Source: Minisyncoccota bacterium | Lineage (GTDB): Bacteria; Patescibacteriota; Minisyncoccia; Phycocordibacterales; JACRKE01 | NCBI GenBank assembly: GCA_041660505.1 | Contig: JBAZWG010000001.1 | Location: forward strand, 307,979 to 371,978 | Direction: 5' to 3' | DNA: 64,000 nucleotides | Shown: positions 7,601-29,693 of the stretch, piece by piece | How positions within the stretch are numbered: the first letter of the stretch is position 1 | Layout of the letters: each line of letters begins with the position of its first letter | Translations under genes and position numbers: made by a program | Notes under the pieces: generated by a model | Told to the model about the DNA's origin: nothing | Database searches by the model: none | Seen by the model: only the letters and a program-made list of their open reading frames with translations

Positions 7601-7636
7601 AAGGTTCAACCTTTTGCTTGCTTAAGGTTGAACCTT
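7601..7636. repeat. Family-1 paired palindrome
   Basis: aaggttcaaccttttgcttgcttaaggttgaacctt sits in the convergent gap before rplE. A degenerate agaaggtttaaccttct follows at 7656-7672. Confidence 0.75.
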
Positions 7637-7669
7637 CCTGTGCTTTATTTTTTTAGAAGGTTTAACCTT

Positions 7670-8203: not shown

Positions 8204-8217
8204 ATTTTTTGTCTATC

Positions 8218-8255
8218 TTAAGGTTCAACCTTTTGGATGCCTAAGGTTGAACCTT
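8218..8255. repeat. Family-1 paired palindrome
   Basis: ttaaggttcaaccttttggatgcctaaggttgaacctt lies between rplX and rplE. Confidence 0.8.
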
Positions 8256-8263
8256 GCTAGTCA

Positions 8264-8572: not shown

Positions 8573-8645
8573 GATTTTGTTTTTGACTTTCTCCTCAACA
8601 CTCGGTGTTTAGTGCTCCCAACACCGAGTGTTTTCCCGAAAGTCT

Positions 8646-9026
8646 TTATACCACCTCTGGTGCGAGAGAAATAATCTTCTGATAACCGACCTCACCGAGC
8701 TCGCGCGGGATAGGACCGAATACGCGGCCGCCGATTGGCTCTTTCTTCTTCTTCGTATCTTTGTCGATAATAACCACCGCATTCTCGTCGAAGCGCAGGT
8801 AGGTACCGTCCTTGCGGCGGAAGGCCTTCTTCTGGCGCACCACAATAGCCTTTAAGACATCCTTCTTCTTGATCTGGCGGCGCGGTTCGGCAACCTGGAC
8901 GGACAGGATAACCATCTCGCCAATCTCGGCGTAGTGCTTCTTGGAACCGCCAAGCACCTTGAAGATGCGTCCGATACGGGCTCCGGTGTTGTCTGCGATC
9001 TTTACAATTGAGCGTGGTTGAATCAT
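8646..9026 (-). CDS. rplN: 50S ribosomal protein L14
   Basis: MIQPRSIVKIADNTGARIGRIFKVLGGS... matches L14. Confidence 0.95.
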   Translation of the reverse strand: MIQPRSIVKIADNTGARIGRIFKVLGGSKKHYAEIGEMVILSVQVAEPRRQIKKKDVLKAIVVRQKKAFRRKDGTYLRFDENAVVIIDKDTKKKKEPIGGRVFGPIPRELGEVGYQKIISLAPEVV

Positions 9027-9035
9027 GGTAGTTTT

Positions 9036-9098
9036 TGTACTTGGACGCTTGGCTTCTGGGAACAGGGCACGGAAGCCGAGCGTCCAAGTTCCTTATCT
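9036..9098. repeat. Family-2 hairpin element (TTGGACGCTYGGCTTC ... GAAGCCGAGCGTCCAA)
   Basis: 16-bp perfect inverted arms at 9041-9056 and 9072-9087, with loop tgggaacagggcacg. It lies between the rpsQ stop and the rplN start. Confidence 0.8.
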
Positions 9099-9359
9099 TA
9101 TCTTTTCGACAATAGTGAAGCGCTTCTCCTTTGACATCGGACGGCATGGCATCATGCGGACGACATCCCCTGCGGCGTACTCATTCTTCTCGTCATGTGC
9201 CTTAAACTTCTTATCGTGCACGATAAACTTGCCGTACTTCGGGTGTTTCTTATAGGTTGAGACGAGCACGACCGCAGTCTTGTCCATTTTGTGCGACAAG
9301 ATTTTACCTTGTAAGCCCTTGCCTATTTTCTGACCTGTTTTTTGTGTTTTTGTTTCCAT
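9093..9359 (-). CDS. rpsQ: 30S ribosomal protein S17
   Basis: METKTQKTGQKIGKGLQGKILSHKMDKTAVVLVSTYKKHPKYGKFIV... matches S17. The track ORF extends to 9386 through the family-1 repeat (MNLKEDKII prefix). The start is placed at the ATG at 9357-9359. Confidence 0.9.
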   Translation of the reverse strand: METKTQKTGQKIGKGLQGKILSHKMDKTAVVLVSTYKKHPKYGKFIVHDKKFKAHDEKNEYAAGDVVRMMPCRPMSKEKRFTIVEKIR

Positions 9360-9377
9360 AATAATTTTGTCTTCTTT

Positions 9378-9412
9378 AAGGTTCAACCTTTTGGATGCCT
9401 AGGGTTGAACCT
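9378..9412. repeat. Family-1 paired palindrome
   Basis: aaggttcaaccttttggatgcctagggttgaacctt lies between rpmC and rpsQ. Confidence 0.8.
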
Positions 9413-9422
9413 TTTCCAGTCT

Positions 9423-9629
9423 TTACTTTTTCTCGTTCAATTTAGTCAGAATTCGGGCGATATCGCGCTTCATAACACTTGATGCCTTCACGTTCTTCAC
9501 TCGCGCGCCGGAGACACCGAAGCGGAAGTTCTTTAACGCCTCGCGTTTCTCGCCGAGCATTTTCTTCAAGGCATCGGTGCCTGAGTCTTGAACTTCTTTG
9601 CGATGAGTTGTAGTGTGTTTCGTTGCCAT
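9423..9629 (-). CDS. rpmC: 50S ribosomal protein L29
   Basis: MATKHTTTHRKEVQDSGTDALKKMLGEKREALKNFRFGVSGARVKN... matches L29. The track ORF extends N-terminally through the family-2 hairpin. The start is placed at the ATG at 9627-9629. Confidence 0.85.
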   Translation of the reverse strand: MATKHTTTHRKEVQDSGTDALKKMLGEKREALKNFRFGVSGARVKNVKASSVMKRDIARILTKLNEKK

Positions 9630-9643
9630 ATTTTTTGTATTTT

Positions 9644-9702
9644 GTACTTGGACGCTCGGCTTCTGGGAACAGGGCACGGAAGCCGAGCGTCCAAGTTCCT
9701 TA
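9644..9702. repeat. Family-2 hairpin element
   Basis: Arms at 9648-9663 and 9679-9694 carry the same loop as the 9036 copy. It lies between the rplP stop and the rpmC start. Confidence 0.8.
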
Positions 9703-10116
9703 TCTTGCTATAATCCTTGTCTTAACGCCGAGCTTCGTGCCTGCTTTGCGGAGCGCCTCGCGCGCCGTTGCCTCATCGGTACCGTCGATCTCAAAGAGAA
9801 TACGACCCGGGTCCACCTGGACGCAGTAGCCTTGCGGATCGCCCTTGCCCTTACCCATCTTCACTTCTGCCGGCTTGGCGGTGAATGGTCGGTCGGGGAA
9901 GACGCGAATCCAGAGCTTACCCGTCTTCTTCAAGCATCGCATGATTGCTTTGCGGGATGCTTCAATCTCGTTCGAGCGGATGCGGTCGTGACCCTCGGTC
10001 TTGAGTCCGAATGAACCGAAGGCGAGCGTGGTACCGCGCGTCTCCATGCGCACTTTGCCTGTGTTTTTGCGGCCGGTCTGCCACTTTCTGAATTTTACTT
10101 TTTTCGGGAGTAACAT
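9700..10116 (-). CDS. rplP: 50S ribosomal protein L16
   Basis: [40 protein letters not shown]... matches L16. The track ORF start at 10143 lies in the family-1 repeat; the ATG at 10114-10116 is preferred. Confidence 0.92.
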
Positions 10117-11763: not shown

Positions 11764-12564
11764 TTATTCCTTAAATCCGAGCTCGGCTATGGCTGGGTCC
11801 TCCCCCTCAACCAGTTCTTCAGCATCTTCGAACAAGAAGTCTCGGTGCTCTTTTTTATCTTCGAAGATCTCCCAAAATAACTCGGGCGTAAGTAGTGAAG
11901 GAAAGTTTTTCGCTCCCAAATAGTCAGCACAGCTCGACCAGCGATAATTCTTCAAAAAAGCCTCTATTCTTCTATTGTCCGAGGCGAGACCTCGGACATC
12001 GTGTATTGGCATGAGATCGACGGGATTAAGGTGTATATATCGCGCCAATACCGGAAGATACTGCTCATTGGTCACTTCCTTGCTCTTGAATAGTCCTTGG
12101 TAAAGTGCGCCTGTGCGCTTGTGCTTTTTATTAAAAAACATCGTATGCCCTGTCAGAACTTTTTGCATGAACTTACTCAATCCCGTATCGGTCTTCGGCG
12201 AAAGTAGGAGGTGGATATGGTTCGGCATCAGCGCATAGGCCACAATGTCTACGAGCTTCTCCCGTTTATCGGGCTTTTCTGTCTTGTCCGAGGTCTCGCC
12301 TCGGACATTAGAATTTGAGGGGGTTTTACCTGCGTCGCCCTTCAGTTTACCTTCGTTGCGGATCTTTTCTATCGGTGCGGTGTCGTTACAGACATACAAA
12401 TAATGAATAAACCGCCTGTAGTCGCGATTGTCCAGAAAAATATCGCGCTTCTCCGTCCCCCGATTATAGATATGATAATAAGCTCCCGCCTCAAATGGTA
12501 TTCGTTCCATATAGCCTAGTATACCACGGATAATGGCGGAGGTTGAACCTCCGCCATATAACAA
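11764..12564 (-). mobile_element. tnpA: IS200/IS605-type HuH tyrosine transposase (REP-associated RAYT-like), inserted between rpsS and rplB
   Basis: It contains an HuH motif (ALMPNHIHLLL) and a downstream tyrosine region (ARYIHLNP). The likely real start is MERIPFEAGAYYHIYNRG at 12510. Two copies of the GTCCGAGG-N5-CCTCGGAC hairpin lie in-frame inside it, at 11976-11999 and 12285-12307, encoding VRGLASD and VRGETSD. A ggcggaggttgaacctccgcc hairpin at 12533-12553 sits just upstream. Confidence 0.75.
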
Positions 12565-15531: not shown

Positions 15532-16722
15532 TTACGCGTTGATTTTCGTTACAACTCCTGCACCCACCGTCTTGCCACCTTCACGGATAGCGAAGCGTTG
15601 CTTCTCTTCCAAAGCTACCGGGGCCACGAGCTTGACTGTGATGTTGACCGTATCACCAGGCATAACCATCTCTGTGCCGGCCGGCAATGTCACGTCGCCC
15701 GTCACGTCCGTCGTGCGGACGTAGAACTGCGGCTTGTAACCATTGAAAAACGGCGTGTGACGGCCTCCTTCTTCTTTCTTCAAAACGTAAATTTCTGCGG
15801 TGAAATCGGTGTGAGGAGTGACTGAACCAGTCTTACATAGGACCTGACCGCGGGTAACATCTTCTTTCTTGGTACCGCGGAGGAGAATACCGGCATTGTC
15901 GCCAGCGATACCCTCGTCAAGCTGTTTGTTGAACATTTCGATACCGGTAACGGTCGTCTTGGAAGTCGGGTGAATGCCGACAATTTCTACTTCTTCACCT
16001 ACCTTAATCTTCCCGCGTTCTACACGGCCGGTGACCACAGTACCGCGGCCTTCAATAGAGAACACGTCTTCGATAGGCATGAGGAATGGCTTGGCGACAT
16101 CGCGAACAGGCTCAGGAATATAAGTATCCAAGGCGTCTGTGAGCTCAAGAACTTTCTTGACCCACTCATCATTTACATCCTTGCCTTCCAGCGCCTTAAG
16201 GCCGGAGCCGCGGATAATCGGACAATCCTTATCGAAGCCCTGCTTGGCCAATAGGTCGCGTACCTCCTCTTCAACGAGGTCGATAAGCTCTTTGTCGTCA
16301 ACCATGTCGCATTTGTTCAAGAAGACAAGTACCTTTGGCACACCAATCTGCTTGGCCAAAAGAATGTGCTCGCGAGTCTGTGGCATCACGCCATCGGTTG
16401 CGGCAACAACGAGAATAGCCCCATCCATCTGGGCGGCACCGGTGATCATGTTCTTGATATAGTCGGCGTGTCCCGGAGCGTCGATGTGCGCGTAGTGGCG
16501 TTTATCTGTGGCGTATTCGTTGTGAGAAAGGGCGATAGTAATACCGCGCGCCTTTTCTTCCGGCGCAGAGTCAATCTGGTCTACCGACTTCATGCGCACA
16601 GTCTTACCCGCCAAGTTGAGCGAGTGGAGGATGGCCGCGGTCAAAGTGGTCTTGCCGTGGTCAACGTGACCGATGGTGCCGACATTTACGTGCGGCTTGG
16701 AACGATCAAATGCTTCTGCCAT
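15532..16722 (-). CDS. tuf: Elongation factor Tu
   Basis: 396 aa. It has [18 protein letters not shown] and NKCD, the canonical GTPase motifs of EF-Tu. Confidence 0.98.
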
Positions 16723-16807
16723 ATTTTTTAAATAAGATTATTAATACTAATTTTTTATAACGTCAGGAATCGCGCTCTACGAGGACGCAATACCTATTTA
16801 AAACAAA

Positions 16808-16845
16808 GCCACGCACATAATCATGCGTGGCTTGTATAGTAGCAG
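16808..16845 (-). terminator. Rho-independent terminator after the 1284-aa surface protein gene
   Basis: On the minus strand, gccacgca-tgattatgt-gcgtggc is followed by tttgtttt. Confidence 0.6.
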
Positions 16846-16867
16846 ATTCTAGGGCTATCCGTCAATA

Positions 16868-19800
16868 CTACTTGAGCGAGGCTTTCAAGGCTTGCAGAGC
16901 CTTAAGAATACTGGCAAGTTGTAGATTCATACTCTTCGTATTTAACGATGCTGCCGCCGCCGTAACCGTAAAGTTAGCGGTAGCCCTTCCACCATCAGGG
17001 TTTGTGACAACAACTTCCTTGCTTCCGGCTGCGGTAATGTTGCTACCGAGTACTTGAGCAACCATCCAAGTGCTAGATCGTGCCCTTCCACTGCCATCCG
17101 ACGATAGAACTTGATTTACCGGCACTCCACCAAAGGTGACGGTGGAATTGAGGGCAAAGTTGGTTCCATTAATAGTTAGCCAGAAATATGAGGGGTTTGA
17201 GCCGGCAACGAGTGTTGCCGGAGAGAGCGAGGTGATGGTGGGAGTAGTGGCGGCAGGCGTGACAACCGTGAATACTGATGGTAGTCTCACATAGCCACCT
17301 GCGGACTGATAGACTATTAAACCATAACTGCCGGGTAGGAAATTGGTTGGTATATCCCAAGTCACACTATTGCCAGTAATATTTTGGGCAATATAGATAT
17401 TGCTTGGCCCCTCTGTCGCTAACGTAATAGGGCCTGTAGAACCGGCGGGTACTCTTGTAAAACCAACTGTTACCCTAGAGCCTGGATTTATTATGCTACC
17501 TGATGCTGGTGTGACTGTGATACCGCTTACCGAGGTGGTGGGGATGGGGGTAGCGGAGACCACTGTGTAATCCACTGTCACTGTATTCCCTATCTGTGCG
17601 CCTGACCTCTGCAATTTCCACTGTCGACTGATTGCTCCGAGATTACTCGTACCTTCAGTGAGGAATGTCACGGTGTAGCTTCCATCGCTATTTCGCACCA
17701 CCGTACTGCAGTTTGAATTACTCTGCAAAGAGATAGAACTGCACACCTGACCTCCGTTAAACTCCGGTCCTCTGTATAGATTAACATCGTTACCCCACAC
17801 CGCCGTACCTGTGTTTTTCACAGTGATAGTCGGTCGGAATGTACTGTTTTGAACCACATTTTTGTTCGCCGGAACTCCACCTACTGTGAGAGTCGCTTGA
17901 TAGGTAGGTTCAGCGACAACTGGGGCTCCATACTGCACATCGGCCTGGTAGTACCAACCTGACACCTGCGTGTCACCGTTATATGCGACTACGACATAGT
18001 GATATTTTGTTCCAAGTACCAGAGTCCTGCCGTTACTACCTGTATCTACACAAGATGGCGCATTCGGGCTGAAGCCGATGGCACAGTCAGTGCTAACGTC
18101 AGACCAGAAATCCTTACGGTCAGAGAGACTCCCGTCTGTCGGGCTAACGACATAGCGCAAGAAAGCGTATCTGTTGTAATTTGGGTGCTTAGGCCAAGTG
18201 AAGGTTATCTTGCCGGCGGTTGTGTCTGCGACTGCTGTGGCGGTGGTCGGTACGGTCTGGGTAGCATCGATAATAATATTCCTTATAGAGGAACATGTGG
18301 TCAAATTCTTTTTACATACGCGTATCTGTAGATTTCCAACAGGAGTATCGCCGCCAGTACCCAGATTCAATGCACCAAGACCTAATTGGATATCGGCCAC
18401 AGAAGTGTTCCAATTTGTAGCACTTGCAGCTTTATATTGAACCGTGGCTAATTCAGTTGAAGAAATTTCGAGAAATGACCACGTTAGTGACACTGATTGA
18501 CCCATAGTGACATGAGCACCCTCAATAGGATTATTTATGGTAATAGACCCCATGATTGTTGGTGTCGTTCCATACACCACATCGGCTTGATATGAGTATT
18601 CACTTGTAGGAACTTGGCTTATGTAGCCGTTCCATGCATATACTTTGTATCGATATTTTGTTCCAAGCACTAGACCTGATTTGTCGACACAAGACGGTGA
18701 GTTACGATCGAAAGAGTTTGAACTGGTTGTGCTTGAACATTCACCAGTGTCTGACCATAAATATTTTTCCACGGCAGATTCCGTACCAGCTGAATTTACC
18801 GTCCTGCGAGAAACAACATATCTATTGTATGTCGGGTGCTTCGGCCAAGTGAATGTAACCTTACCGGCGGTTGTGTCTGCGACCGCGGAAGCCGTTAGGG
18901 TTGTTGGGTTGTTGATTGTAATACCGTCTGTTTTTGCCGTTGCGATTATTAAGCCTTCGGGATGGACCGTGGCATCAGCGAGGGCGATACTAAGCAGATA
19001 TTCACCTGCTGGGATTGCATTAGTATTCGGTAAAGTCCAGCTCATTGTCCCGGCTGATGCGATTGGATGAGCACTCAAACCGACGTCTTGCTGTGGTAGC
19101 CCGGTGTCGCTACCTACTGGATACAGCGATACCACCACAAATAGATTATGATTTGTCGGCAAATTTGTAGTCGTCCAATTTACTGCGTAAGTAGCACCTT
19201 TCTGTAAACGGTTGCCACCGCTCGGTCCAGTAATTGTGATTGTCGGGGAAACCGGCGCTGTCGCAGTCAGGCGGGTCCCTGTACCGTATACAGTCCCTGC
19301 GGAACGCAATTGAATCAAACCTGCATCTGCGCTGTCGATCTTTCCGTCATCGTTTACATCACACGACCTACTGGCCGGACATGAGAATCCGGGTTTATTT
19401 ATGGAAAGGTTGTACATAAACGACACATCCGTGCTGGTGAATGCGCCGTCGCCGTTCACATCAAATGTTGAATCGGGAACATTAATGACTCCATTGTCCA
19501 ATCTGGCTCCCTGACCAAACTTAGCTTGCGAAAGCCTCGATGCCATGAGTGCCGTATCGCTGTCGTCCACTTTTCCATCTCCATTCAAATCACACTTCTC
19601 TATCGTACAGACAGATGTTTTGCCGAGAGTGAAGTTGATTATATTCTGCTGATCTGAAGAATCTACTCTGCCGTTTGCATTTATATCGAGAGCACTGTCG
19701 AGAAGTTTGATGTCTCCGGTGTTTGTCGGGACAAAACGTGCACCGGTACCAAATATCATGTTGGTGCCCATAGTTCTGTAAACCATAAGCTGTGAGTCAA

Positions 19801-20722
19801 CTATGTCAACAACACCGTCTTTGTTTAGATCGCACTTATTGGGCGTGCAAGCAGACTGCGTGCCGGCAATATAATTCTCTAAGGTTTGTACATCACTAGG
19901 AGAGACTCTTCCGTCGTTGTTTAGATCCAAATTAGCATCCGGCACGAGAATCTGTGCCACAGGCAGAACAGGCGTCTTTCCCGCTATATAATTTTGAATT
20001 ACCTTCAGGTCAATTTGGTCTACTCTAGTATCACCGTTTAAATCACAAGAGAGAATTGGGCATGTCTCTTGTCCATTAATAACTTTCTTCATGAGGTCAA
20101 TACTGCGCTGGTCTGCATGCCCTGTACCGGCTAGGTCATAATTCTGAAGAAGGTAGAACTGCGGTACGGCGATACTGCCTGCAGATGTCTCGATGGTAAC
20201 CTGACATGCCGGCGGGGTACCGCCTGCCGTATTCGCGCGCGGACAATCCGGAGTCTCGTGCAATTCCGGAATGACGAATTGGAGTCTTGTGCCATTACCG
20301 GTCGAGGAGACGTTCTCTACCCGCTTGCCGCCTATGACTACCGTGTCGGTAGCGTCGAAGTTGCGTCCGGTGATTACCACTGTCATGCCCGGCTCGCCCA
20401 TATAAGGCGTTATTGCAAAAACGGTTGGTTTGGAAGTCAGTAATCCTTGCAATGACTGGATGGCACTATAGAGTGCGGAGCTGATGAGGTTTTCGTAGTT
20501 TATTCTCTGGGTGTTTGTAATCTCGGGCGAATTGCGGACAAGATCGAGTAGATCATAGCCAGTAGTAATACTATTACAGGCCGACCGCATGCCGGCAGAC
20601 GGATTGTTGGCCAGAATAGTTGTGCATTGGCTCCGCGCATCGGCAGACACGCTGTGCGGGAATACGGTAACAGACACGAAAACAAGACCTGCCAGAAGGA
20701 GGCCTCCTAAAAGTTTTTTCAT
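16868..20722 (-). CDS. Giant secreted surface protein with IPT/TIG-like, Ig/FN3-like and about seven dockerin-like Ca-binding repeats
   Basis: The true start MKKLLGGLLLAGLVFVSVTV is a signal peptide with its ATG at 20720-20722. The track ORF runs to 20905 through the upstream gene. It carries repeats of the form CDLNGDTRVDQIDLKVIQNYIAGK and CDLNKDGVVDIVDSQL. It ends ...QLASILKALQALKASLK. Confidence 0.8.
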   Translation of the reverse strand: MKKLLGGLLLAGLVFVSVTVFPHSVSADARSQCTTILANNPSAGMRSACNSITTGYDLLDLVRNSPEITNTQRINYENLISSALYSAIQSLQGLLTSKPTVFAITPYMGEPGMTVVITGRNFDATDTVVIGGKRVENVSSTGNGTRLQFVIPELHETPDCPRANTAGGTPPACQVTIETSAGSIAVPQFYLLQNYDLAGTGHADQRSIDLMKKVINGQETCPILSCDLNGDTRVDQIDLKVIQNYIAGKTPVLPVAQILVPDANLDLNNDGRVSPSDVQTLENYIAGTQSACTPNKCDLNKDGVVDIVDSQLMVYRTMGTNMIFGTGARFVPTNTGDIKLLDSALDINANGRVDSSDQQNIINFTLGKTSVCTIEKCDLNGDGKVDDSDTALMASRLSQAKFGQGARLDNGVINVPDSTFDVNGDGAFTSTDVSFMYNLSINKPGFSCPASRSCDVNDDGKIDSADAGLIQLRSAGTVYGTGTRLTATAPVSPTITITGPSGGNRLQKGATYAVNWTTTNLPTNHNLFVVVSLYPVGSDTGLPQQDVGLSAHPIASAGTMSWTLPNTNAIPAGEYLLSIALADATVHPEGLIIATAKTDGITINNPTTLTASAVADTTAGKVTFTWPKHPTYNRYVVSRRTVNSAGTESAVEKYLWSDTGECSSTTSSNSFDRNSPSCVDKSGLVLGTKYRYKVYAWNGYISQVPTSEYSYQADVVYGTTPTIMGSITINNPIEGAHVTMGQSVSLTWSFLEISSTELATVQYKAASATNWNTSVADIQLGLGALNLGTGGDTPVGNLQIRVCKKNLTTCSSIRNIIIDATQTVPTTATAVADTTAGKITFTWPKHPNYNRYAFLRYVVSPTDGSLSDRKDFWSDVSTDCAIGFSPNAPSCVDTGSNGRTLVLGTKYHYVVVAYNGDTQVSGWYYQADVQYGAPVVAEPTYQATLTVGGVPANKNVVQNSTFRPTITVKNTGTAVWGNDVNLYRGPEFNGGQVCSSISLQSNSNCSTVVRNSDGSYTVTFLTEGTSNLGAISRQWKLQRSGAQIGNTVTVDYTVVSATPIPTTSVSGITVTPASGSIINPGSRVTVGFTRVPAGSTGPITLATEGPSNIYIAQNITGNSVTWDIPTNFLPGSYGLIVYQSAGGYVRLPSVFTVVTPAATTPTITSLSPATLVAGSNPSYFWLTINGTNFALNSTVTFGGVPVNQVLSSDGSGRARSSTWMVAQVLGSNITAAGSKEVVVTNPDGGRATANFTVTAAAASLNTKSMNLQLASILKALQALKASLK

Positions 20723-20825
20723 AATATATTGTTGCCTCGATGGGCTAATTAATTGCACTAAATATAATAATAAAGAGACGAGGTAAGTGTACCTCGTCTC
20801 TTTAGATGTGACAAGTTGATAAAAA

Positions 20826-21239
20826 TTACAGCGTTGTTTCGATAATTTCAACAAATTCTTCGATATCTCGGTATCGCTTCGTGAGCACATCGTACAGAAT
20901 GTCATAATTCACTTTTACATAATCATGCGCTATCACATTTCGAAATCCGACCATTTTCACCAATCTTTCCGATAGGTCATGCGGAATAACGTTATTCTCA
21001 TCGAGAACATAGAATGTTTCGCTCAAGGTGGTCGGCTTCCTTAATCTCTTGTAAGCAACTACCGCCTCGGCAAGATCGATCGTACTCTGGGCCATGAGAT
21101 ACAAATACCGCTCCACGGCTCCGCGTATCGTTTCATCAGCTACAATTTCTTCTTGTGATAACGTTCGATATCGGGCAATGGCTGTCAGATACTTACGCAC
21201 AAAGCCGATCATATTTTCAAGCACTATTTTATTCGACAT
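20826..21239 (-). CDS. HEPN-domain toxin (HepT/DUF86-like)
   Basis: 137 aa. It has the R-x4-HxY motif (GFRNVIAHDYV) and overlaps the upstream MNT gene by 11 nt. Confidence 0.75.
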   Translation of the reverse strand: MSNKIVLENMIGFVRKYLTAIARYRTLSQEEIVADETIRGAVERYLYLMAQSTIDLAEAVVAYKRLRKPTTLSETFYVLDENNVIPHDLSERLVKMVGFRNVIAHDYVKVNYDILYDVLTKRYRDIEEFVEIIETTL

Positions 21240-21633
21240 ATACTTTTTTTGTTAAGCCATGGCGCAATAGTATCTTCCGAAAATCAAAATATTCATTTAA
21301 AATCTTTGGTTCTGTAAGTACACGGAACGGTTCACGCTCAAAGATAATCTCTCCTTCGGCAATAGCCGCATACTTGAGTTCTGGAGAAATAGCATCGTTC
21401 AAGATCACAAGGTCAACGGCGTCGACTTTTAGAATGTAAGATAGGTCGGCTAAGAGCTTGAGTTTGAGGTCGCTCCGTTCTAGCGAAGACAGTTTATCGA
21501 ACTGGACGGCGAAGTCATAATCGCTCATCGGCCCCGCGTCGCCGCGCGCGCGCGAGCCGAAGAAGTACGCAACAACTACTTGCGGGCAGGCGCTAAAGAC
21601 CTCTGTTATCTTACGTTTGGTGGCAGTATCCAT
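21229..21633 (-). CDS. Minimal nucleotidyltransferase (MntA-like antitoxin)
   Basis: It has VVAYFFGSRARGDAGPMSDYDFAV (GS-x9-DxD). The start is placed at MDTATK at 21633. Confidence 0.75.
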   Translation of the reverse strand: MDTATKRKITEVFSACPQVVVAYFFGSRARGDAGPMSDYDFAVQFDKLSSLERSDLKLKLLADLSYILKVDAVDLVILNDAISPELKYAAIAEGEIIFEREPFRVLTEPKILNEYFDFRKILLRHGLTKKVYVE

Positions 21634-21704
21634 AGTGTTAGTCCTAAAACAGACAAGGCCATTGTACCTTGTCTGTTTTGTTATCACAAGTTTATACTAC
21701 TTTC

Positions 21705-24575
21705 TTACTTCACCATTGCCTTGAGCGCCCGCAGCGCAGAGATGATACTCGCGAGTTGCGAGGATGCGGTGGCCGTACTAGATGGCGTAGCGCCTGCCTT
21801 GTTAGACCAGCCAGTGAGTGCTGTATCATTTTGCCAAGCGGAGACCGCATAGTAATAGGTAGTGCCATTGGTCAGACCCGTATCGGTATAGCTTGTCGCT
21901 CCGCCTTCTACCCAGATTACTTGAATAGGGTCAGTCCCCCAGCGCATCGTTGACACCGTACTTCGGTATAGCGAGTATTTCGTTGCGTTAGGATAAGTGC
22001 TCCAAGAAAGCGAGATTCTACCATTACCAACAGTCGGCACGTTCACAACCGGCGTACCGGATATTGCAGAATCGGCGAACGGGGCGGGCGCAAGAACAGT
22101 AAGAGCCGATTGTGCCGAAGCAACCGTTGTGGCAAGTGTACCCATACAATAGCCGAAACAGGCATTGCTTGGCGTGTACAATACTGCGCGTAACGATGTT
22201 TGCCCGGCAGACAGATTACACAAAGTTTCCACATCTGCAAGACACTGTCCGTTCAATGCAGGCACTTGCCAAGTACGCGTTCCGCTCGTAGACAATCCGT
22301 CACCGATAGATTGATGAAATGGCTGATTGCCAACCAAGAGCCTTACAGCACTGTCTGCTGGCGCATTGGTTGATTGCCAAGAAATAGTTACTGTATCGCC
22401 CGGACAAACGGACGTACTACTTAAGTTCGTAATTGCAATAGACGGTGTCGCAGCGGTTGGGGCCGTCATGCTCGCGATATTACTTGCAGAGTTCTGTGTC
22501 GAACGGTCTGGCCCAAGCGGGAATAATTTATAATAATATGTGCCTGTCCAACCGGCCGCACGATGATCGGTGAATGATGTGGCGGAGGGAGACAAACCGA
22601 ATGCCAGCGCCTTGGTGGCAGTGTTGTTGAGCGGAACCGAAGAATCTGATGAAATATAAAGGTCGTAACCCTGTGCGCCTGAAGCTGGCGACCATGCTAC
22701 CAGAACACTCGTACCATCACTTTGCACAGATGCATGCAGGTCGGTAACATAAGCGGGACGAACGGGCGTACCGGACGTGACGTTAAAGGTTACGCTCCAT
22801 GTGCCCGAGTTCGTATAACTGATAGAATTTACTGTAATGTTTACCGGCGTGAATCCGGAAGCCACGCCGATATTCTTCGTCTGTCCTTCATAGAGATAGT
22901 CTGAATCCGCGAGTAATGTACCCGCACTGGTATAGAACTTAAACTTCACTTCAATCGGTCCATCACCGCCCATAGAATCCGCACTGTCTGCGTAGAGAAC
23001 CAGGCCATTATTGAGGAGGAGCGAGTCCCAGCTATGCAGTGTCTTCGTACCCTCACCGGTAAAGGTTGGGGTAACTGTAAATGTTTTACAGAAGTCGGTA
23101 GGATTAGTGCTTGAGAAGTCAATTCGAGCGCACACAGTATTAGGACCGGGAAGTGTCAAGCCAGAGGTGGCGGTACGTTGCGTAGTCGCACCGGGCGCAA
23201 TAGTCGGAATCGTGTCGGTTGATCCATTCAAGGTAAAGCTCGTCGGCACAGACGCAGTTGTCCCGTTATTCTTTATGGTTGCCGTCCAGGTAGCAGTCAC
23301 CCCGCCCAAAATCGGGTTGGCACTGGCCGTAATGTCAATGACACTAAGACCCGAGCTCGATGTGCCGCCGGTGATAGTAAACGGTGCATCGCTCTTATCT
23401 TCCACAGTGCCCGTGCCATCGCTCTTGTAGCCGATGATATAAATCTTGAAGATTGCACCGTTGCCCAAGTCACTCGCGGAGATAAACTGCGAAGGAACCC
23501 ACGAAAGGCTCCCTTGTCCTCCTATGCCTCCCACAGAGATATCGCGTCCAATCCAGGCGTAGGATGCATCATTGCGATAGAGCGCAATGGATACGCTGGA
23601 AAGATTGTTTGGTGCGTATGTAATCGTCTGATTGCCGGACAACGAGAAAGACTCACCGCCATTCGGAGAGATTACCTTAATACTTGCAGGCTGATTGTTG
23701 ATAACTACACCAGCAGGGCCATTAACATAGTCGCCCGCGGTCCCTTCTACTGGACTGGATGAATTGCACCACAACGAGACACTATAGGTATTTGGAGTTA
23801 TGTGTAAGGTTCGACTTCCGGAGGATCCGACATTGTCGTATTGCACATATTCAGCATTTTGATTGCTGTTTACACTCATTGAACAGTTAGCGGCATTGGA
23901 TGACCACGTCGCAGATACATCACGGCCGGCTGCAGGGACACTCGTGATCGCATTGTGCGAACCGTCAAGACTCAAAGTTGCGTGGATCGTCCCGGTTGAA
24001 ACCAATCTAAACGGATTATTACTGCGATCGGTTTCGCCGGTCACCGTATTCACAAGGCGGACATAATAGCCATCGCCGGGAGTTGGTAGGTTACCATAGG
24101 TATCCAAATCGCCAGACCAGTGGATTGAGGCCTTGCCTGACTCGATAATCTTGCCGAGGGTTATAAAATTGCCGTTCACTCGCTTCTCAAGATAAGCGTT
24201 TACTTGTGAAATTGCCGGGTTGATACCATTGTCCGGATCATACGGTGTCCATAATATGGTGTGGGTGTCACCGAGTTGCCACTGTTCACCGCCGTTTGGC
24301 ACGGTCAGCCTAAGCGACGAACTCTGTCTCCAACCTCCGCCTCCTTGCCCTTGTGCAATGAGCTGATTAACTAATACCTGGAGTGCCAGCGCCTGCTTTA
24401 ACAAATTAACTTGGGCCTGGAGTTCTGCAACGGTGCCACCGGGCATACTGTACACTTCATTTATTAATGCTTGTACCTGCGCTTGCAACTCTGCTGCCGT
24501 CGCCGCGTGAACTGCCGGCGCGCCGGACACGAAAACAAGACCTGCCAAAAGGAGGCCTCCTAAAAGTTTTTTCAT
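21705..24575 (-). CDS. Giant secreted surface protein (paralog of the 16868 gene), rich in Ig/FN3-like beta domains
   Basis: True start MKKLLGGLLLAGLVFVSGAPAVHA at 24575. The signal peptide and 5' UTR are near-identical to the 20722 gene. An N-terminal coiled-coil region is present (AELQAQVQALINEV...). It ends SSQLASIISALRALKAMVK. Confidence 0.8.
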   Translation of the reverse strand: MKKLLGGLLLAGLVFVSGAPAVHAATAAELQAQVQALINEVYSMPGGTVAELQAQVNLLKQALALQVLVNQLIAQGQGGGGWRQSSSLRLTVPNGGEQWQLGDTHTILWTPYDPDNGINPAISQVNAYLEKRVNGNFITLGKIIESGKASIHWSGDLDTYGNLPTPGDGYYVRLVNTVTGETDRSNNPFRLVSTGTIHATLSLDGSHNAITSVPAAGRDVSATWSSNAANCSMSVNSNQNAEYVQYDNVGSSGSRTLHITPNTYSVSLWCNSSSPVEGTAGDYVNGPAGVVINNQPASIKVISPNGGESFSLSGNQTITYAPNNLSSVSIALYRNDASYAWIGRDISVGGIGGQGSLSWVPSQFISASDLGNGAIFKIYIIGYKSDGTGTVEDKSDAPFTITGGTSSSGLSVIDITASANPILGGVTATWTATIKNNGTTASVPTSFTLNGSTDTIPTIAPGATTQRTATSGLTLPGPNTVCARIDFSSTNPTDFCKTFTVTPTFTGEGTKTLHSWDSLLLNNGLVLYADSADSMGGDGPIEVKFKFYTSAGTLLADSDYLYEGQTKNIGVASGFTPVNITVNSISYTNSGTWSVTFNVTSGTPVRPAYVTDLHASVQSDGTSVLVAWSPASGAQGYDLYISSDSSVPLNNTATKALAFGLSPSATSFTDHRAAGWTGTYYYKLFPLGPDRSTQNSASNIASMTAPTAATPSIAITNLSSTSVCPGDTVTISWQSTNAPADSAVRLLVGNQPFHQSIGDGLSTSGTRTWQVPALNGQCLADVETLCNLSAGQTSLRAVLYTPSNACFGYCMGTLATTVASAQSALTVLAPAPFADSAISGTPVVNVPTVGNGRISLSWSTYPNATKYSLYRSTVSTMRWGTDPIQVIWVEGGATSYTDTGLTNGTTYYYAVSAWQNDTALTGWSNKAGATPSSTATASSQLASIISALRALKAMVK

Positions 24576-24621
24576 GATATGTTGTTGCCCTGAAGGGTAA
24601 TTAATTGACAATGTGCTTATA

Positions 24622-24649
24622 ATATCACCCCCCCCCCGGCGAGTCACAA
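24622..24649 (-). promoter_or_regulatory. Candidate promoter with a G10 homopolymer in the -35/-10 spacer (phase-variation candidate)
   Basis: The minus strand reads ttgtga-ctcgccgggggggggg-tgatattataag, about 50 nt upstream of the MKKLL start. The C10 run lies at plus-strand coordinates 24628-24637. Confidence 0.5.
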
Positions 24650-24784
24650 GGGGACAAATGCGAATTTCAGATCATTTTAAAGACAAAACTGCTGGTTTTA
24701 TCTCCCGCACATATCTCTCATATACCGGAATGATCGAGCAATGACAAATATTTCTCGGCATTCTCTCTGTGTATAATATTGATT

Positions 24785-25174
24785 TTATAGTGTTTGTAAA
24801 TACTGACGCCTTAATGCCAGCAACTTCTTTGATTCCCAATAAAGATCATACACGTACACGGCAAAACGGTCGAACCACCCGGGCTCGCGTTCATAGAGCA
24901 ATATCCCATCCTCTATAGCTCCTCGTTGATATATCGGCGACATTTGGGCTAGTTGTGCAACTTCGACATCTATAGCCATCTTTTGAGAGATTGCCGCCGC
25001 AATCTGACCGACTTCAATTGTGCTAAGTTCAGATTTTACAGCAATACCGATATCAATATCACTTAATCTATTCGCATCCCCTCTCGCTTGCGAACCGAAG
25101 AGAATCGCCGCCTGTAAATCATACTGCGGGGCTATTTCGGCGATAGTTTTCCGTAATAATTCCGTATCTATCAT
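24785..25174 (-). CDS. Minimal nucleotidyltransferase (MntA-like), with no intact HEPN partner
   Basis: It has AAILFGSQARGDANRLSDIDIGIAV. Downstream, 24660-24784 holds only a short remnant ORF. Confidence 0.7.
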   Translation of the reverse strand: MIDTELLRKTIAEIAPQYDLQAAILFGSQARGDANRLSDIDIGIAVKSELSTIEVGQIAAAISQKMAIDVEVAQLAQMSPIYQRGAIEDGILLYEREPGWFDRFAVYVYDLYWESKKLLALRRQYLQTL

Positions 25175-25219
25175 ATCTACCAGTATATTGCCTTTCTAGC
25201 CTTGGCGCAAGAAGAAATT

Positions 25220-26494
25220 CTAGTAGCTATAATACGCCGATGTCGTAAACGTATTGATCGGGCTGTAGACCGGTGTGCCGGTGCTAAGTGATGCGACTAG
25301 GCGGTATTGATACACAGTACCCGGCTGGAGATATGTGACCGGCGCGCTCACAGGTATTATGCCGGCCTGGAAGGTATTGTTGGTCTTGTTCGTGCGCATG
25401 ACGGTGTTTGCATTGGTCACATCGGTGCCATATTCGAACCATGTCCAGACGGTGTCACCGCTTGTGTTGGTGAGATTGACGGTGCCGTTAACAGTCGCGC
25501 TGTTTGGCGTGATGTTTGTTGCTTGGGTTGTCGCTGTAGAGCTAATCGCGCTCGTCACGACATTATTGTAGCCGTAGTTATATCCATACGCGTTGGTCGG
25601 TGTAGTTACAACAACCGGTGCCGACACCACAGAAACTTGCGAACAGTCGCTCGTAACACACGCGTAAACTACGTAGGTATGCGTACTGTTGGGAACCAAG
25701 TTACTAACCTGCAACGTTTTATTGGATGTAACTGATATCACACTAGACTGATTGTTCGGCAAGACCTCTACAACCTTGAACGAATAGATACCCGTCGTGT
25801 TATACCAAGTCAGCACAACGGAATTCGGCATAAGGGATGACGCCGTAAGGCTAAATGGTGCGCCAGCCGTTACCACTGACACGCCGTTATATCCGGTCGT
25901 CCCATTATCTACTTGGAAATAGAGCGTATTACTGCCGGTGCCGTCTGGCTTACGCAAGCGAACACCGTAGTTCCCCGGTGTGACCGGTGATGCGCAGGCG
26001 TTCTGATCTATCGAAGGATTGGAGCAAGGATATTTGATCGTCGTTGGGAAGATGAAGCCGAAGCCCGGGTCGACTACGTCGACAGTAACATAAGACTGCC
26101 CCGGCGGGATAATTTCTATCCTGTCATTCACGGTGATGTTACTGCCCTGGAAGTTGACTCGGACGCCGGCCATACCTGATGACGGCGAGAGCATTGAGAG
26201 ATACGGCGCCGGCAAAGAAATGACCGGCGGTGTCATCGGCGGGTAATTCGTGGTGCCAGACTGGGAGTTGGTATAGCTCGCGTTATTGACTTGAAGTTGT
26301 AACTGGAGCGCCTGTTGGAGGAGCTGAATCTTCTGGGTCAATTGTTCATTGGTGTCGCTAGGTAGTGACTGCACAAGATTCAAAATATACTGCACCTGCG
26401 CCTTCTGGCTGTCCATTGTAGGGTTATACATCTGGGCCGAGGCCGTAAGAGGCAAGAGCATCGCGCACAAAATATAAAGGGTGTATTTTTTCAT
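25220..26494 (-). CDS. Secreted protein with an N-terminal coiled coil and an IPT/TIG-like domain
   Basis: It has the signal peptide MKKYTLYILCAMLLPLTASA, then QVQYILNLVQSLPSDTNEQLTQKIQLLQQALQLQLQ and LSPSSGMAGVRVNFQGSNITVNDRIEI. Confidence 0.7.
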   Translation of the reverse strand: MKKYTLYILCAMLLPLTASAQMYNPTMDSQKAQVQYILNLVQSLPSDTNEQLTQKIQLLQQALQLQLQVNNASYTNSQSGTTNYPPMTPPVISLPAPYLSMLSPSSGMAGVRVNFQGSNITVNDRIEIIPPGQSYVTVDVVDPGFGFIFPTTIKYPCSNPSIDQNACASPVTPGNYGVRLRKPDGTGSNTLYFQVDNGTTGYNGVSVVTAGAPFSLTASSLMPNSVVLTWYNTTGIYSFKVVEVLPNNQSSVISVTSNKTLQVSNLVPNSTHTYVVYACVTSDCSQVSVVSAPVVVTTPTNAYGYNYGYNNVVTSAISSTATTQATNITPNSATVNGTVNLTNTSGDTVWTWFEYGTDVTNANTVMRTNKTNNTFQAGIIPVSAPVTYLQPGTVYQYRLVASLSTGTPVYSPINTFTTSAYYSY

Positions 26495-26573
26495 ACACAT
26501 AGTTTAGCGCTTTTGAGTACGCTCTGCAACCAGTTTCCCCTCTCCTTCGGGGAGGGGCGCAGGGGGAGGGGCT

Positions 26574-28721
26574 TTACTTCCTCGCTTCGATAATCTGGGC
26601 TTCGATATTCTTGGAGACAATCTGATATTCGCAGAATTCCATGGTGAAGCTGGCGCGGCCCTCGGTCATACTGCGGAGCTGAGTGACGTAGCCGAACATT
26701 TCCGATAGTGGCACTTTGGCATTGACCACTTTGTTCTGTCCGCGATTTTCCATACCTTCTATTTGGGCGCGGCGGGATGACAGGTTACCGGTCACGTCAC
26801 CCATAAACTTCTCGGGCGTCACCACCTCCACCTTCATTATCGGCTCGAGGATAACCGGGCCGGCGCGTTTGGCCGCTTCTTGGAAGGCGATGGAGCCCGC
26901 CATTTTGAACGCCATTTCGGACGAGTCCACGTCGTGAGATGAACCGAAGGTGAGCTCGACGGATACATCCACAACCGGGAAGCCGGCAAGAATACCGCGG
27001 CCAAGAGCTTCGCGCACGCCTTTCTCAACGGCCGGGATAAATTCATTCGGAATGACACCGCCCTTGATACTGTTGATGAACTCGAAGTGGTCCTCGCGCG
27101 TCGTATTCTTCGAGACTTTTTTATCAGGGTCAACAGCCTCAAGCGGTTTGACGGTAAGCACGCAGTGGCCGTACTGACCGCGACCGCCGGACTGCTTGAT
27201 GTGCTTGCCTTCCGCCTCGGCGCTCTTCGTGATGGTCTCCTTGTACGCCACCTGCGGTTTGCCGACGTTCGCCTCCACATTAAATTCGCGCTTCATGCGG
27301 TCAATGATAATTTCGAGGTGGAGCTCACCCATGCCGGAGATAATCGTCTCCATTGTCTCTTCATCGGTCGAGATTCTAAATGTTGGGTCTTCGTCCGAGA
27401 GGCGCTTCATGGCCAAGCCCATCTTCTCTTGGTCGGCCTTGGTCTTGGGCTCAATGCGCATAGACACGACCGACTCCGGGATCTTGATAGACTCGAGCAC
27501 GATAGGATGTGCCTCATCACAGAGCGTGTGGCCAGTCTTGGCTTCTTTAAGCCCTACCGCCGCCGCGATTTCACCGGCGAAGACTTTCTTAACCTCTTCG
27601 CGTTCATTCGCATGCATGCGGAGGATACGGCCAAGGCGTTCGCGCGAACCGGTACTGGCGTTATAAACATAAGAGCCAGACTCGATTGTGCCGGAGTAGA
27701 CGCGGAAGAAGGTGAGCTGGCCAACAAACGGATCTGATTGTAATTTGAAGGCAAGAGCCGAGAAAGGCTGGTCGTCAGAAGCCGGGCGAGTAATCTCCTC
27801 ACCCGTGTTCGGGTCAGTCCCCTTCGTGACCGGGATGTCTAGCGGCGATGGCAAGTAGTCAACGACAGCATCGAGCACAAGTTGGACGCCTTTGTTCTTA
27901 AGAGCCGAACCGCAGAGCACAGGGACTATCTTGTTGTCGATTACCGCTTTGCGGAGAATTTTCTTGAGGCGCGCGATATCGATCTCTTTACCTTCCAGAT
28001 ATTCATTCATCGCGGTGTCATCTTCGGCCACAATCTTCTCGATGAGTTCGTGATGGAATTTCTTGGCTGTCTCGAGCAAGTTTTCCGGAATTTCCGCCTC
28101 TTTTACCACACTGCCTTTGTCTCCTTCGAAGTAGAACGCCTTCATTTGGAGCAGGTCAATAACGCCTTCATGCTTATCCTCTTCGCCAATTGGGATTTGC
28201 ATTCTTACTGCGTCCTTCGTAAGCCGGTCTAATATTGTGGCGTAAGAATGTTCGAAGTTACCTCCCGTGCGATCGAGTTTGTTAATGAAGCAGATGCGCG
28301 GCACGTTGCCCTCGTCGGCATAACGCCAGTTGGTCTCGGATTGGGGCTCTACGCCGGCCACGCCGTCAAATACTACGACAGCGCCGTCCAAGACGCGCAA
28401 AGAACGACGCACTTCGATAGTGAAGTCAATGTGCCCCGGGGTGTCAATAATATTGAAGCGGAGCTTTTTACTGACGTCCTTCTTATCGGCAACGTAAGTC
28501 GGTGTCCAGAAGGCCGTGGTTGCAGCCGAGGTAATAGTAATACCGCGCTCGCGCTCTTGCTCCATCCAGTCCATGACGGTGTCGCCCTCGTGTACCTCGC
28601 CGATCTTGTGTGATACGCCGGTGTAGAAAAGGATGCGCTCCGAAGTGGTCGTCTTGCCCGCATCAATGTGGGCGATGACGCCGAAGTTACGTACTCTGTC
28701 CAAAGGATAATCTCGATTCAT
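26574..28721 (-). CDS. fusA: Elongation factor G
   Basis: 715 aa. It has [10 protein letters not shown] and DTPGHIDF, the canonical sequences of EF-G. Confidence 0.97.
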
Positions 28722-29177: not shown

Positions 29178-29693
29178 TTAATCATTCTCAGGGTCACCAC
29201 CATGCAGTATCCTACGTTTCGCCTCTTTGTTAATTTTCCAGAATGGAATGATGCTCCAGAAATACTTTTCTCCGCCAGCTACTTCTTTGACAATTACTTT
29301 GACGCGGACGTTATCCAAAACCGCGATGAATTCATAGAACGAAACATCTTTAAGAACATGCTCCCAGCGATTATTCGTCTTTTGTGATTCGAACCGTTTA
29401 GTATGGAATATGCCTTGTACCGTCCGCGAGAGTCTTAAGACTTCAGGTGCCAAATGTAATAATTTAAGCCGTGCATACTGGTCATGGTGCGGCCGCGCTT
29501 GTTGATCCGATTTGAATTTTAAATGTCGAATCCCCTTAGCATTGAATGCGATGTCTCCGGAAAAATACGGACAGCGCACAGATTTAATAGTTTCATAAAA
29601 TGCTTCTGCTCTATCGCGATGTGCCAGGAAGTCAGCTTCATCTTTCAAATTAAACTTTCCCATGTAGCCGTCATTATAGCGCAGTCGAAACAA
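29178..29693 (-). CDS. Hypothetical protein inserted between rpsG and fusA
   Basis: 171-aa ORF (MFRLRYNDGYMGKFNLKDEADFLAHRDRAEAFYETIK...). No family was recognised. Confidence 0.45.
   Translation of the reverse strand: MFRLRYNDGYMGKFNLKDEADFLAHRDRAEAFYETIKSVRCPYFSGDIAFNAKGIRHLKFKSDQQARPHHDQYARLKLLHLAPEVLRLSRTVQGIFHTKRFESQKTNNRWEHVLKDVSFYEFIAVLDNVRVKVIVKEVAGGEKYFWSIIPFWKINKEAKRRILHGGDPEND

Follow-up and report, generated by a model that had tools for sequence, protein, structure and literature searches.

Candidate contingency cassettes for surface proteins, with promoter poly-G tracts and toxin-antitoxin neighbours, between fusA and tuf of a Paceibacterota bacterium

Bacteria of the candidate phyla radiation (CPR, or Patescibacteria) are thought to live attached to host cells, and to our knowledge the means by which they vary or control the attachment surface are essentially unknown. 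Elsewhere, phase variation through a homopolymer in the promoter spacer is known for porA (poly-G) and opc (poly-C) of Neisseria meningitidis and for vlp (poly-A) of Mycoplasma hyorhinis. General background on phase variation is given in PMC5084427 and PMC5320596. Class I HepT/MntA toxin-antitoxin modules are defined by the motifs GSX10DXD in the MNT protein and RX4HXY in the HEPN protein (PMC7641770), and toxin-antitoxin cassettes stabilise chromosomal integron arrays in Vibrio by limiting deletions (Szekeres et al. 2007, cited in PMC7167474). Here we describe a 64-kb stretch of DNA (64,000 nucleotides, hereafter the window) from an ultrasmall, groundwater-type bacterium of the Paceibacterota (CPR/Patescibacteria) in which 9,851 bp lie between fusA (EF-G) and tuf (EF-Tu), filled with minus-strand genes for large secreted proteins and for HepT/MntA-type modules; a further cassette of the same kind adjoins nusA. 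We tentatively favour, at somewhat less than even confidence, the reading that these are tandem contingency cassettes for surface proteins, in which poly-G tracts would switch the promoters and toxin-antitoxin genes would help to retain the cassettes.

The surface proteins form a family through a common 5' block, comprising a promoter, a 5' untranslated region (UTR) of ~45 nt, a signal peptide and a two-helix N-terminal module, and each cassette gene would encode a Sec-exported modular surface protein. The signal peptide follows the pattern MKKYxxGLLxTGLVFVSG..AHA|A and the helical module, ~50 residues long, the consensus TLxxMQAQVSxILTQVQQLPSxTIxELQLKVSLLTGALxLQxQVNxLI (both from alignment A1); beyond the block the bodies are unrelated, being combinations of IPT-like, Fn3, CARDB, Ig-like and dockerin domains. 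When a profile of the module was run against 1.84 billion representative proteins it matched only 20, 14 of them at E<=1e-10, always at residues 1-77 of proteins 196-1601 aa long. Given so few matches and a module that is invariably N-terminal, the family is very small and lineage-restricted, with a conserved head and interchangeable bodies. An additional member, WC764_03195, is encoded elsewhere in the same genome. A separate protein profile search with the N-terminal module alignment A1 gave no match at E<=1e-3, and a search for related loci with alignment A2 returned only three metagenome loci, two of them already known. AlphaFold2 modelling of the first 210 residues from a 6-sequence alignment was poor (predicted local distance difference test score, pLDDT, 43) and suggests only two helices beyond the signal peptide, at 24-43 and 49-83.

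A first-pass annotation of the window had called the secreted proteins paralogous, which holds for the N-terminal module of ~77 aa and a few Ig/Fn3-like domains but not for the full length. The 1284- and 956-aa proteins, for instance, have only the UTR and signal peptide in common, apart from weak C-terminal domain similarity (BLASTP). The near-identity that had been seen between the 5' UTRs and signal peptides of these two largest proteins is real but short: a repeat search detected a 72-nt direct repeat of 92% identity at the 5' ends of the two genes, BLASTN aligned 83 nt at 91.6%, and the shared segment spans about 22-45 nt of UTR together with signal-peptide codons. Within the UTR, the segment CATTGTCAATTAAyT..CCC..GGGC is common to paralogues and orthologues. 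At their other ends, the C-termini of the 1284-aa (16868-16960) and 956-aa (21705-21780) proteins carry the same amphipathic helix motif, ..LQLASILKALQALKASLK and ..SQLASIISALRALKAMVK, which looks like the helical module at the N-terminus and might serve as another "handle".

The most informative feature of these genes, overlooked by the first-pass annotation, is a poly-G tract within the promoter. A regular-expression scan of the 64 kb for homopolymers (G/C >=7 or A/T >=9) shows that the window's only two long runs are a G10 and a G9, both in promoter spacers, for an expectation that we estimate at about 0.4 G/C runs of >=9 by chance. The spacer upstream of the 956-aa gene reads cTTGTGACTcgcc-G10-tgaTATTAT and that upstream of the 576-aa gene TTTGCAaatttggc-G9-TAGAAT, and in a consensus scan both sites are promoter-like with the G tract between -35 and -10. 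Family genes from other assemblies carry a tract at the same position: two promoters of a groundwater metagenome locus (L083) read TTTGCAattttcgc-G11-TACAAT (TTGCAA-18-TACAAT) and -G11-ACAAT, and one of locus L088 reads CTTGCCtttcctggc-G9-TATACT (TTGCCT-17-TATACT). Tract lengths by locus are thus G9, G10, G11, G11 and G9, giving spacers of 16-19 nt, and throughout 563 kb of other CPR loci G/C runs of >=8 were found only at family genes or at the giant secreted gene of locus L020. Because a tract that keeps its promoter position across paralogues and orthologues while drifting in length is the signature of slipped-strand phase variation, these poly-G promoters are probably phase-variable. Members with the full block would be transcribed from their own sigma70-like promoter with a G9-G11 tract in the -35/-10 spacer, and slipped-strand mispairing at the tract would alter spacer length, leading to stochastic switching or tuning of expression. 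We found no report in the literature of simple-sequence phase variation in CPR bacteria.

The L020 gene is of a different kind. This locus (L020:5271-5413, Candidatus Taylorbacteria) has, directly after rplB in the S10 operon, a gene (5389-9708) for a 1439-aa secreted Big_7/PG_binding protein, whose 5' end contains a C9, a G8 directly before TGATATAAT and a G9 in the first codons, such that the frame from the ATG is open only with G8 or G11. Judged by these runs, it looks like a second, unrelated simple-sequence contingency locus in a ribosomal operon.

BLASTP of the cassette proteins against all open reading frames (ORFs) of >=50 aa identified three MNT-bearing genes in the window, and all three lie directly 5' of a surface gene on the same strand, as the first-pass annotation had described. 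By our estimate the chance of such placement for 3/3 MNT genes, with four related secreted genes among ~62 genes, is ~(4/61)^3, or ~3e-4. With pairwise identities of only 31-36%, the MNT copies are not products of a recent tandem duplication. Their identity was assessed with the NCBIfam equivalogs NF047752 and NF047751 (cutoff 60 bits): all three MntA matches and the split HepT score above the cutoff, and the HEPN half of the fused protein falls just below it (see the table for scores). The GSX10DXD motif reads GSRARGDAGPMSDYD in the 134-aa MntA and GSQARGDANRLSDID in the solo MntA, and RX4HXY, which holds the RNase site and the acceptor Tyr, is present in both HepT and the fused protein, where the MntA match covers residues 16-129 and the HepT match residues 166-266. 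A two-gene unit with MNT upstream of HEPN is found once, the solo MntA having no such partner. Its HEPN partner had been described as decayed, a claim that fails: the 209-nt spacer after the solo MntA contains a predicted promoter, and no HEPN remnant was detected there (best tblastn E=0.04). Homologues of the fused MntA-HepT number >220, including several labelled CPR (Vogelbacteria, Sungbacteria, Liptonbacteria) and some from other phyla.

Modules of this class could also be defence genes. In such a defence-island arrangement HepT/MntA would act in abortive infection and be inherited or exchanged together with surface proteins that phages or hosts recognise. The MNT proteins match the PADLOC candidate defence family PDC-S09 (E=5e-12 to 2e-8), an AAA_14/DUF4143 ATPase (47107-48228, minus strand) in a type IV pilus-like/surface cluster has a full-length PDC-S01 match (E=2e-138), and HEPN toxin-antitoxin modules are treated as conflict systems in PMC13000451. 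HepT itself, however, has no PADLOC match, the cassettes contain no phage-related gene or sensor, neither the N-terminal module nor the fused gene has a relative in 2.9 million viral contigs, and nothing links these surface proteins to phage adsorption. We consider this explanation quite improbable.

Returning to contingency cassettes with retained toxin-antitoxin genes, we examined whether the adjacency recurs in other genomes from two directions, from surface-protein homologues to their upstream context and from fused MntA-HepT homologues to their downstream context. Each of the surface homologues with readable upstream context (3/3) is immediately preceded, on its own strand, by a small module of two genes; the L088 contig is too short upstream to be read. 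L083 is a second tandem array, in the order MntA (95 aa)-HepT (119 aa), a 238-aa module protein, BrnT-BrnA and a 649-aa module protein, and in L081/L082/L087 an HTH (68 aa)-DUF3800 (263 aa) pair precedes a 581-aa member. In the other direction, of six independent genes closely homologous to the fused MntA-HepT, two have a family member immediately downstream. One is from Vogelbacteria (L090), where a 39-nt spacer separates the fused gene from the gene of a 554-aa module protein, and nusA and a 61-aa ORF adjoin the cassette, matching the window except that the pair is inverted as a unit; in the other (L091) the fused gene overlaps or abuts the module gene (about 15 nt) and is itself preceded by another variable surface protein. 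The first-pass annotation's "recurrent module" is therefore upheld, with toxin-antitoxin genes immediately preceding family members in at least four loci from other assemblies, and the module types in this position comprise MntA-HepT, its fused form, BrnT-BrnA and HTH-DUF3800. Collectively, these findings indicate that the association between toxin-antitoxin and surface genes is real and orientation-specific, and that it is neither universal nor tied to one toxin family. The HTH_XRE and DUF3800 pair, which may be a toxin-antitoxin or a defence module, stands at L081:598-1606, and its DUF3800 protein has a weak PADLOC match to PDC-M04A (E=3e-4).

The same diversity of modules is what would be expected if the toxin-antitoxin genes were selfish passengers with no functional link to their neighbours, mobile elements persisting at the permissive sites of a streamlined, operon-dense CPR genome such as the promoter-proximal edges of surface genes. 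Their placement would then mirror the sites that tolerate insertion or undergo recombination, and would imply no role for the surface protein. This is the main rival of the favoured reading, and we rate it as somewhat unlikely. It draws on three or four unrelated module types in one position, on a solo antitoxin in the window and a frameshifted MNT beside another homologue, both typical of toxin-antitoxin decay, on the separate promoters and terminators of toxin-antitoxin and surface genes in the window and L083, on the insertions that these ribosomal operons carry elsewhere (a Y1_Tnp gene separating rplB from rpsS, and a 161-aa ORF separating rpsG from fusA), and on a fused homologue, P0016, that lies 3' rather than 5' of strain-variable secreted proteins. 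Passengers would not be expected, however, to stand on the same strand and directly 5' in every case from the window, L083, L081, L090 and L091, to stay paired with the surface gene through an inversion relative to nusA, as in L090 from another candidate phylum-level group, or to leave spacers so short in L090 and L091 that co-transcription is implied. Furthermore, no MNT/HEPN relative was found in the CPR loci fetched around tuf (tblastn E<=1e-4), so toxin-antitoxin genes are not simply everywhere in these genomes.

Two of the fused homologues have neighbours of separate note. Directly 3' of P0007 (L093:2330-2760, also L094-L096) is a second MNT gene with the motif LFGSS..DIDLAVV, apparently frameshifted and with an A8 run near its 5' end, and 3 kb from P0010 (L097:6319-8476) is a diversity-generating retroelement consisting of bAvd, RVT_1 and then a VWA-domain target gene.

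The first-pass annotation had also allowed that the modules might regulate the surface genes. In cassettes of the poly-G type, toxin-antitoxin and surface genes look like separate transcription units, as judged from promoter-like sites and hairpins. The hairpin between HepT and the 1284-aa gene, likely the terminator of the MntA-HepT unit by its stem and U-tract, sits where the paralogous promoter carries its poly-G tract (alignment A3); L083 has a small terminator-like hairpin (2850-2868) after HepT and before the poly-G promoter, and its BrnT gene has a strong promoter of its own (11/12 consensus match). The surface genes of L090 and L091, having almost no spacer, are probably co-transcribed with the toxin-antitoxin gene.

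Operonic or regulatory coupling would make each cassette one expression unit, driven by a basal or stress-responsive toxin-antitoxin promoter or controlled by HepT RNase acting on the 5' UTR of the surface mRNA, so that the state of the toxin-antitoxin module would gate the surface protein. The very short spacers of L090 and L091, which contain no promoter-like site, agree with this, as do the lack of a detected terminator downstream of the window's fused gene, ahead of the 576-aa gene, and the UTR segment conserved among paralogues and orthologues. Against it stand the unrelated toxins found in the same position (BrnT and the DUF3800 protein), the surface genes' own promoter-like sites and the hairpins at two junctions, that of HepT with the 1284-aa gene in the window being strong and followed by a U-tract. 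A conserved stem-loop in the 5' UTR was considered as an RNA element and dropped, as the small hairpins there are no better than shuffles (z about -0.3), and an Rfam scan of the whole window matched no family. Since separate units and interchangeable toxin families argue against a HEPN-specific regulatory role, we regard coupling of this kind as improbable, and the suggestion of regulation finds no support.

Stabilisation, the other role suggested by the first-pass annotation, is plausible and accords with the repeats around the modules. In the window the two 72-nt copies of the 5' repeat bracket MntA-HepT, and in L083 direct repeats of 167 nt (88.6% identity) bracket BrnT-BrnA. As the toxin-antitoxin genes lie between direct 5' repeats, a recombination event joining two copies would remove both the body of a surface gene and the toxin-antitoxin pair. 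This bracketing, which follows the logic of the Vibrio integrons, favours an anti-deletion or hitch-hiking linkage as the most likely role of the modules, and we infer that the genes in the 5' position, most often type VII HepT/MntA in split, fused or antitoxin-only form and in some cassettes from another family, would hold the cassettes together and prevent their loss, acting as addiction or anti-deletion locks and as hitch-hikers, not as regulators of the surface genes. A truly integron-like architecture was considered and dropped: no attC-like repeats were found, nor any integrase among the window ORFs, which were listed and partly scanned. Tandem Repeats Finder, run over 15-29 kb, reported only a trivial 7-mer near fusA.

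Several observations weigh against contingency cassettes held by toxin-antitoxin genes. The independent Logan contigs, which come from the same sample, show identical G9 (L092) and G10 tracts; the promoters are matches to a consensus that is not established for CPR; and the 426-aa and 1284-aa genes of the window have no poly-G, nor do the genes of L081, L090 and L091. The association is also incomplete, with 4/7 of the fused homologues examined lacking a large secreted gene downstream (L084, L089, L093-96, L097) and a fifth, P0016 (L100-L109), followed by an RRM gene instead; in ten assemblies P0016 lies 33 nt 3' of strain-variable secreted Laminin_G proteins. The sample is small and partly biased, L090 and L091 having been found via the toxin-antitoxin gene itself, and the tight coupling at these two loci fits functional coupling better than mere linkage. 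A solo MntA, moreover, cannot be an addiction module and fits toxin-antitoxin decay, and we know of no demonstration of post-segregational killing by HepT/MntA.

The setting of the array proved less exceptional than had been proposed. In the first-pass annotation fusA and tuf were taken to be normally adjacent, which fails in this lineage: 19 Patescibacteria relatives show gaps of 128-5251 nt between them (median 809 nt), against a median of 112 nt in 29 other bacteria, and in several further relatives the 6-10 kb around tuf contain no fusA. Gaps in the relatives contain a Phd/YefM-like small ORF, DUF5663 proteins, orphan proteins of 1134-1547 aa and two type IV pilin-like proteins, and L021, in which fusA is missing from the nearest 6.3 kb, encodes a 1510-aa PKD/Ig secreted protein just upstream of tuf. 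The statement that a module had invaded the most conserved part of the chromosome was consequently overstated; the 9,851-bp array is indeed present between fusA and tuf, but this junction is generally open in Patescibacteria. Throughout the lineage it is a hot spot where accessory genes and surface genes collect, and not the site of a unique invasion, and with wide gaps across the group and the cassettes absent from relatives, the window array is its largest, lineage-specific filling. Among the smaller occupants, many Parcubacteria (L012:9494-9889, L013, L015, L018, L022, L027, L064) have an ORF of ~80-180 aa just 5' of tuf whose product starts (M..)F(D/G)..I.L.K.TGDRI(V/I)(V/I)FD, the Phd/YefM match in L012 being weak (E=3e-4, below cutoff), and closer relatives (L003, L007, L010) have a DUF5663-like ORF of ~95 aa in its place.

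An assembly artefact, in which unrelated contigs were joined between fusA and tuf, had been named by the first-pass annotation as a possible refutation. The source is a metagenome-assembled genome (MAG), and the exact EF-Tu protein has no record in the gene index, its best-matching Patescibacteria MAGs (Kaiserbacteria/Paceibacteria) being 83-85% identical and one Kaiserbacteria MAG 83%. Yet a separately assembled Logan contig (10,406 bp) matches window positions 16695-27100 at 100% identity, covering the 3' end of fusA, the entire interval and the 5' end of tuf and so crossing both junctions, which leaves a mis-join very unlikely. Its gene call likewise gives 1284 aa for the dockerin protein, and a second Logan contig reproduces the nusA-side cassette. 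The GC content of the interval (0.46-0.51) is continuous with that of the flanks, and a foreign origin by composition was dropped on the same figure. We assign an artefact only a minute probability.

The order and coordinates of the genes in the interval, which the first-pass annotation had right, were confirmed by ORF listing, Pfam and NCBIfam and are collected below with those of the nusA-side cassette.

Table. Features of the fusA-tuf interval and of the cassette adjoining nusA (window positions)
Feature	Position	Strand	Description
tuf (EF-Tu)	15532-16722	-	3' boundary of the interval; Pfam GTP_EFTU, D2, D3
Terminator-like hairpin, 12 bp then T-run	16806-16833	-	Between the 1284-aa gene and tuf; spacer folding z=-3.0
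1284-aa Sec-signal surface protein	16868-20722	-	Four Dockerin_1 stretches (Pfam 6e-31); Ig-like / choice-of-anchor-Z (NCBIfam CoaZ_rpt 1.5e-12)
Direct repeat copy 1, 72 nt	20673-20744	-	~22 nt of 5' UTR and first 17 codons of the 1284-aa gene
15-bp hairpin then TTATTATATT	20771-20804	-	Between HepT and the 1284-aa gene; folding free energy (dG) -27 kcal/mol, z=-6.1, 0/200 shuffles as stable
HepT, putative HEPN RNase toxin, 137 aa	20826-21239	-	PF01934 3e-29; NCBIfam HepT_toxin 115.6 bits (cutoff 60); motif RNVIAHDY (RX4HXY)
MntA, putative MNT adenylyltransferase antitoxin, 134 aa	21229-21633	-	PF18765 4e-19; NCBIfam MntA_antitoxin 78.3 bits; 11-nt overlap with hepT
956-aa surface protein (P0128 / WC764_01790)	21705-24575	-	Conserved N-terminal module, then CARDB/Fn3/Ig-like domains
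Direct repeat copy 2, 72 nt	24526-24597	-	Copies 1 and 2 enclose the 956-aa gene body plus MntA-HepT
Sigma70-like promoter of the 956-aa gene	24619-24647	-	GTGACT, 17-nt spacer, TATTAT, extended -10 TG
G10 tract (C10 on the plus strand)	24628-24637	-	In the promoter spacer of the 956-aa gene; candidate slipped-strand switch
Solo MntA, 129 aa	24785-25174	-	PF18765 6e-16; NCBIfam MntA 74.1 bits; GSX10DXD intact; no HepT partner
426-aa surface protein (P0127)	25220-26500	-	Divergent N-terminal module, IPT-like domain, Fn3
fusA (EF-G)	26574-28721	-	5' boundary of the interval; Pfam EF-G domains
Fused MntA-HepT, 289 aa	60028-60897	+	NCBIfam MntA 71.3 bits, HepT 55.7 bits; motifs GSX11DXD, RNIVAHEY
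Sigma70-like promoter of the 576-aa gene	60908-60936	+	TTTGCA, 17-nt spacer, TAGAAT; begins 11 nt past the fused-gene stop codon
G9 tract	60922-60930	+	In the promoter spacer of the 576-aa gene
576-aa surface protein (P0121 / WC764_01960)	60965-62695	+	Canonical N-terminal module

Other genes of the window were noted in passing. Between rplB and rpsS of the S10 operon lies a gene (11764-12510, minus strand) for a 248-aa IS200-like Y1 transposase, or RAYT-type protein (Pfam Y1_Tnp, 6e-10), and between rpsG and fusA of the str operon is the 161-aa ORF (29178-29663, minus strand), its sole match being a weak one to LPD3 (E=7e-4, below cutoff). Three tandem paralogues of 579-594 aa (425-2209, 3352-5106 and 5161-6900, plus strand) have a zinc-ribbon-like N-terminus, CQNCKKxFxIEPEDFEFYEKIKVPPPTWCPxCR; the one at 425-2209, the only one scanned, has no Pfam match, and an NYN-domain gene (2312-2803) lies among the three. 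Two further giant secreted proteins of 1242 and 1102 aa (48362-52090 and 54514-57822, minus strand) have the N-terminus ..AWTGP(T/L)(Q/R)TPPG in common and adjoin genes for pilin-like N-termini without a toxin-antitoxin neighbour; their family differs from the module family.

Should the poly-G promoters switch, they would offer an uncultured, non-pathogen lineage a simple mechanism for phase variation of its surface. A metagenome search could use the signature TTTGCA, about 8 nt, G9-11, TAnAAT and then the conserved leader. The fixed 5' position across genomes and toxin-antitoxin families offers a natural case in which array stabilisation may be set against hitch-hiking. For marker-based phylogeny it is of note that insertions recur in this group at the fusA-tuf and ribosomal-operon junctions, which serve as phylogenetic markers and are here hot spots. 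One can go further and imagine a contingency-locus system of Paceibacteria composed of a toxin-antitoxin lock, a poly-G promoter, an export and two-helix "handle" and a swappable adhesin body, parked in the translation-gene superoperon (between fusA and tuf, after rplB, beside nusA), whose conserved flanks would act as homology arms for transformation-borne exchange between diverged lineages and whose cassettes would be kept by addiction. If real, such a system would be the first mechanism of phase variation and antigenic repertoire described from CPR episymbionts and would open a new functional niche to toxin-antitoxin modules; this wider proposal we judge to be plainly unlikely.

Compared with the described type VII HepT/MntA of Shewanella oneidensis (SO_3166/SO_3165; PMC7641770), the window likewise has an MNT gene upstream of and overlapping the HEPN gene, and its genes keep both motifs, including the AMP-receiving Tyr, with equivalog scores above the cutoff. 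They differ in that every window copy immediately precedes a member of a single surface-protein family and one copy is antitoxin-only; HepT toxicity and its neutralisation through MntA-dependent oligo-AMPylation are putative here. The fused protein resembles the Shewanella FhepTA (PMC13000451) in being a single polypeptide with N-terminal MNT, linker and C-terminal HEPN and in keeping the Tyr beside RX4H. It has the motif GSX11DXD, however, and zero cysteines in its 289 aa, so the FhepTA redox switch, which uses two HEPN cysteines, cannot apply. Whereas FhepTA belongs to Shewanella mobile elements, the window gene is on no recognisable mobile element: no integrase or transposase was found near it, and its neighbours are nusA, the 61-aa ORF and a cell-wall enzyme.

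The array also recalls the Vibrio integrons (PMC7167474) in having toxin-antitoxin genes among same-strand accessory cassettes and between recombinable repeats, but integrase and attC-like sites are missing from the window, the only repeats are the genes' own 5' blocks, and the arrays of the window and L083 are short, with 2-3 cassettes. Relative to porA, opc and vlp, this is an environmental CPR bacterium whose signal peptides are of the signal peptidase I (SPase-I) type (AHA|A) and not of the lipoprotein type, with a toxin-antitoxin module beside each cassette, and switching is here predicted from sequence. The likenesses lie in a homopolymer of 9-11 nt between -35 and -10 of a surface-protein gene, in tract lengths that differ among paralogues and orthologues of the window family, and, for the vlp family, in a common 5' UTR and signal peptide with variable bodies. 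The components, HepT/MntA, simple-sequence phase variation and arrays stabilised by toxin-antitoxin genes, are thus all of known kinds; what is new is their combination, the CPR setting and the location in a translation-gene cluster.

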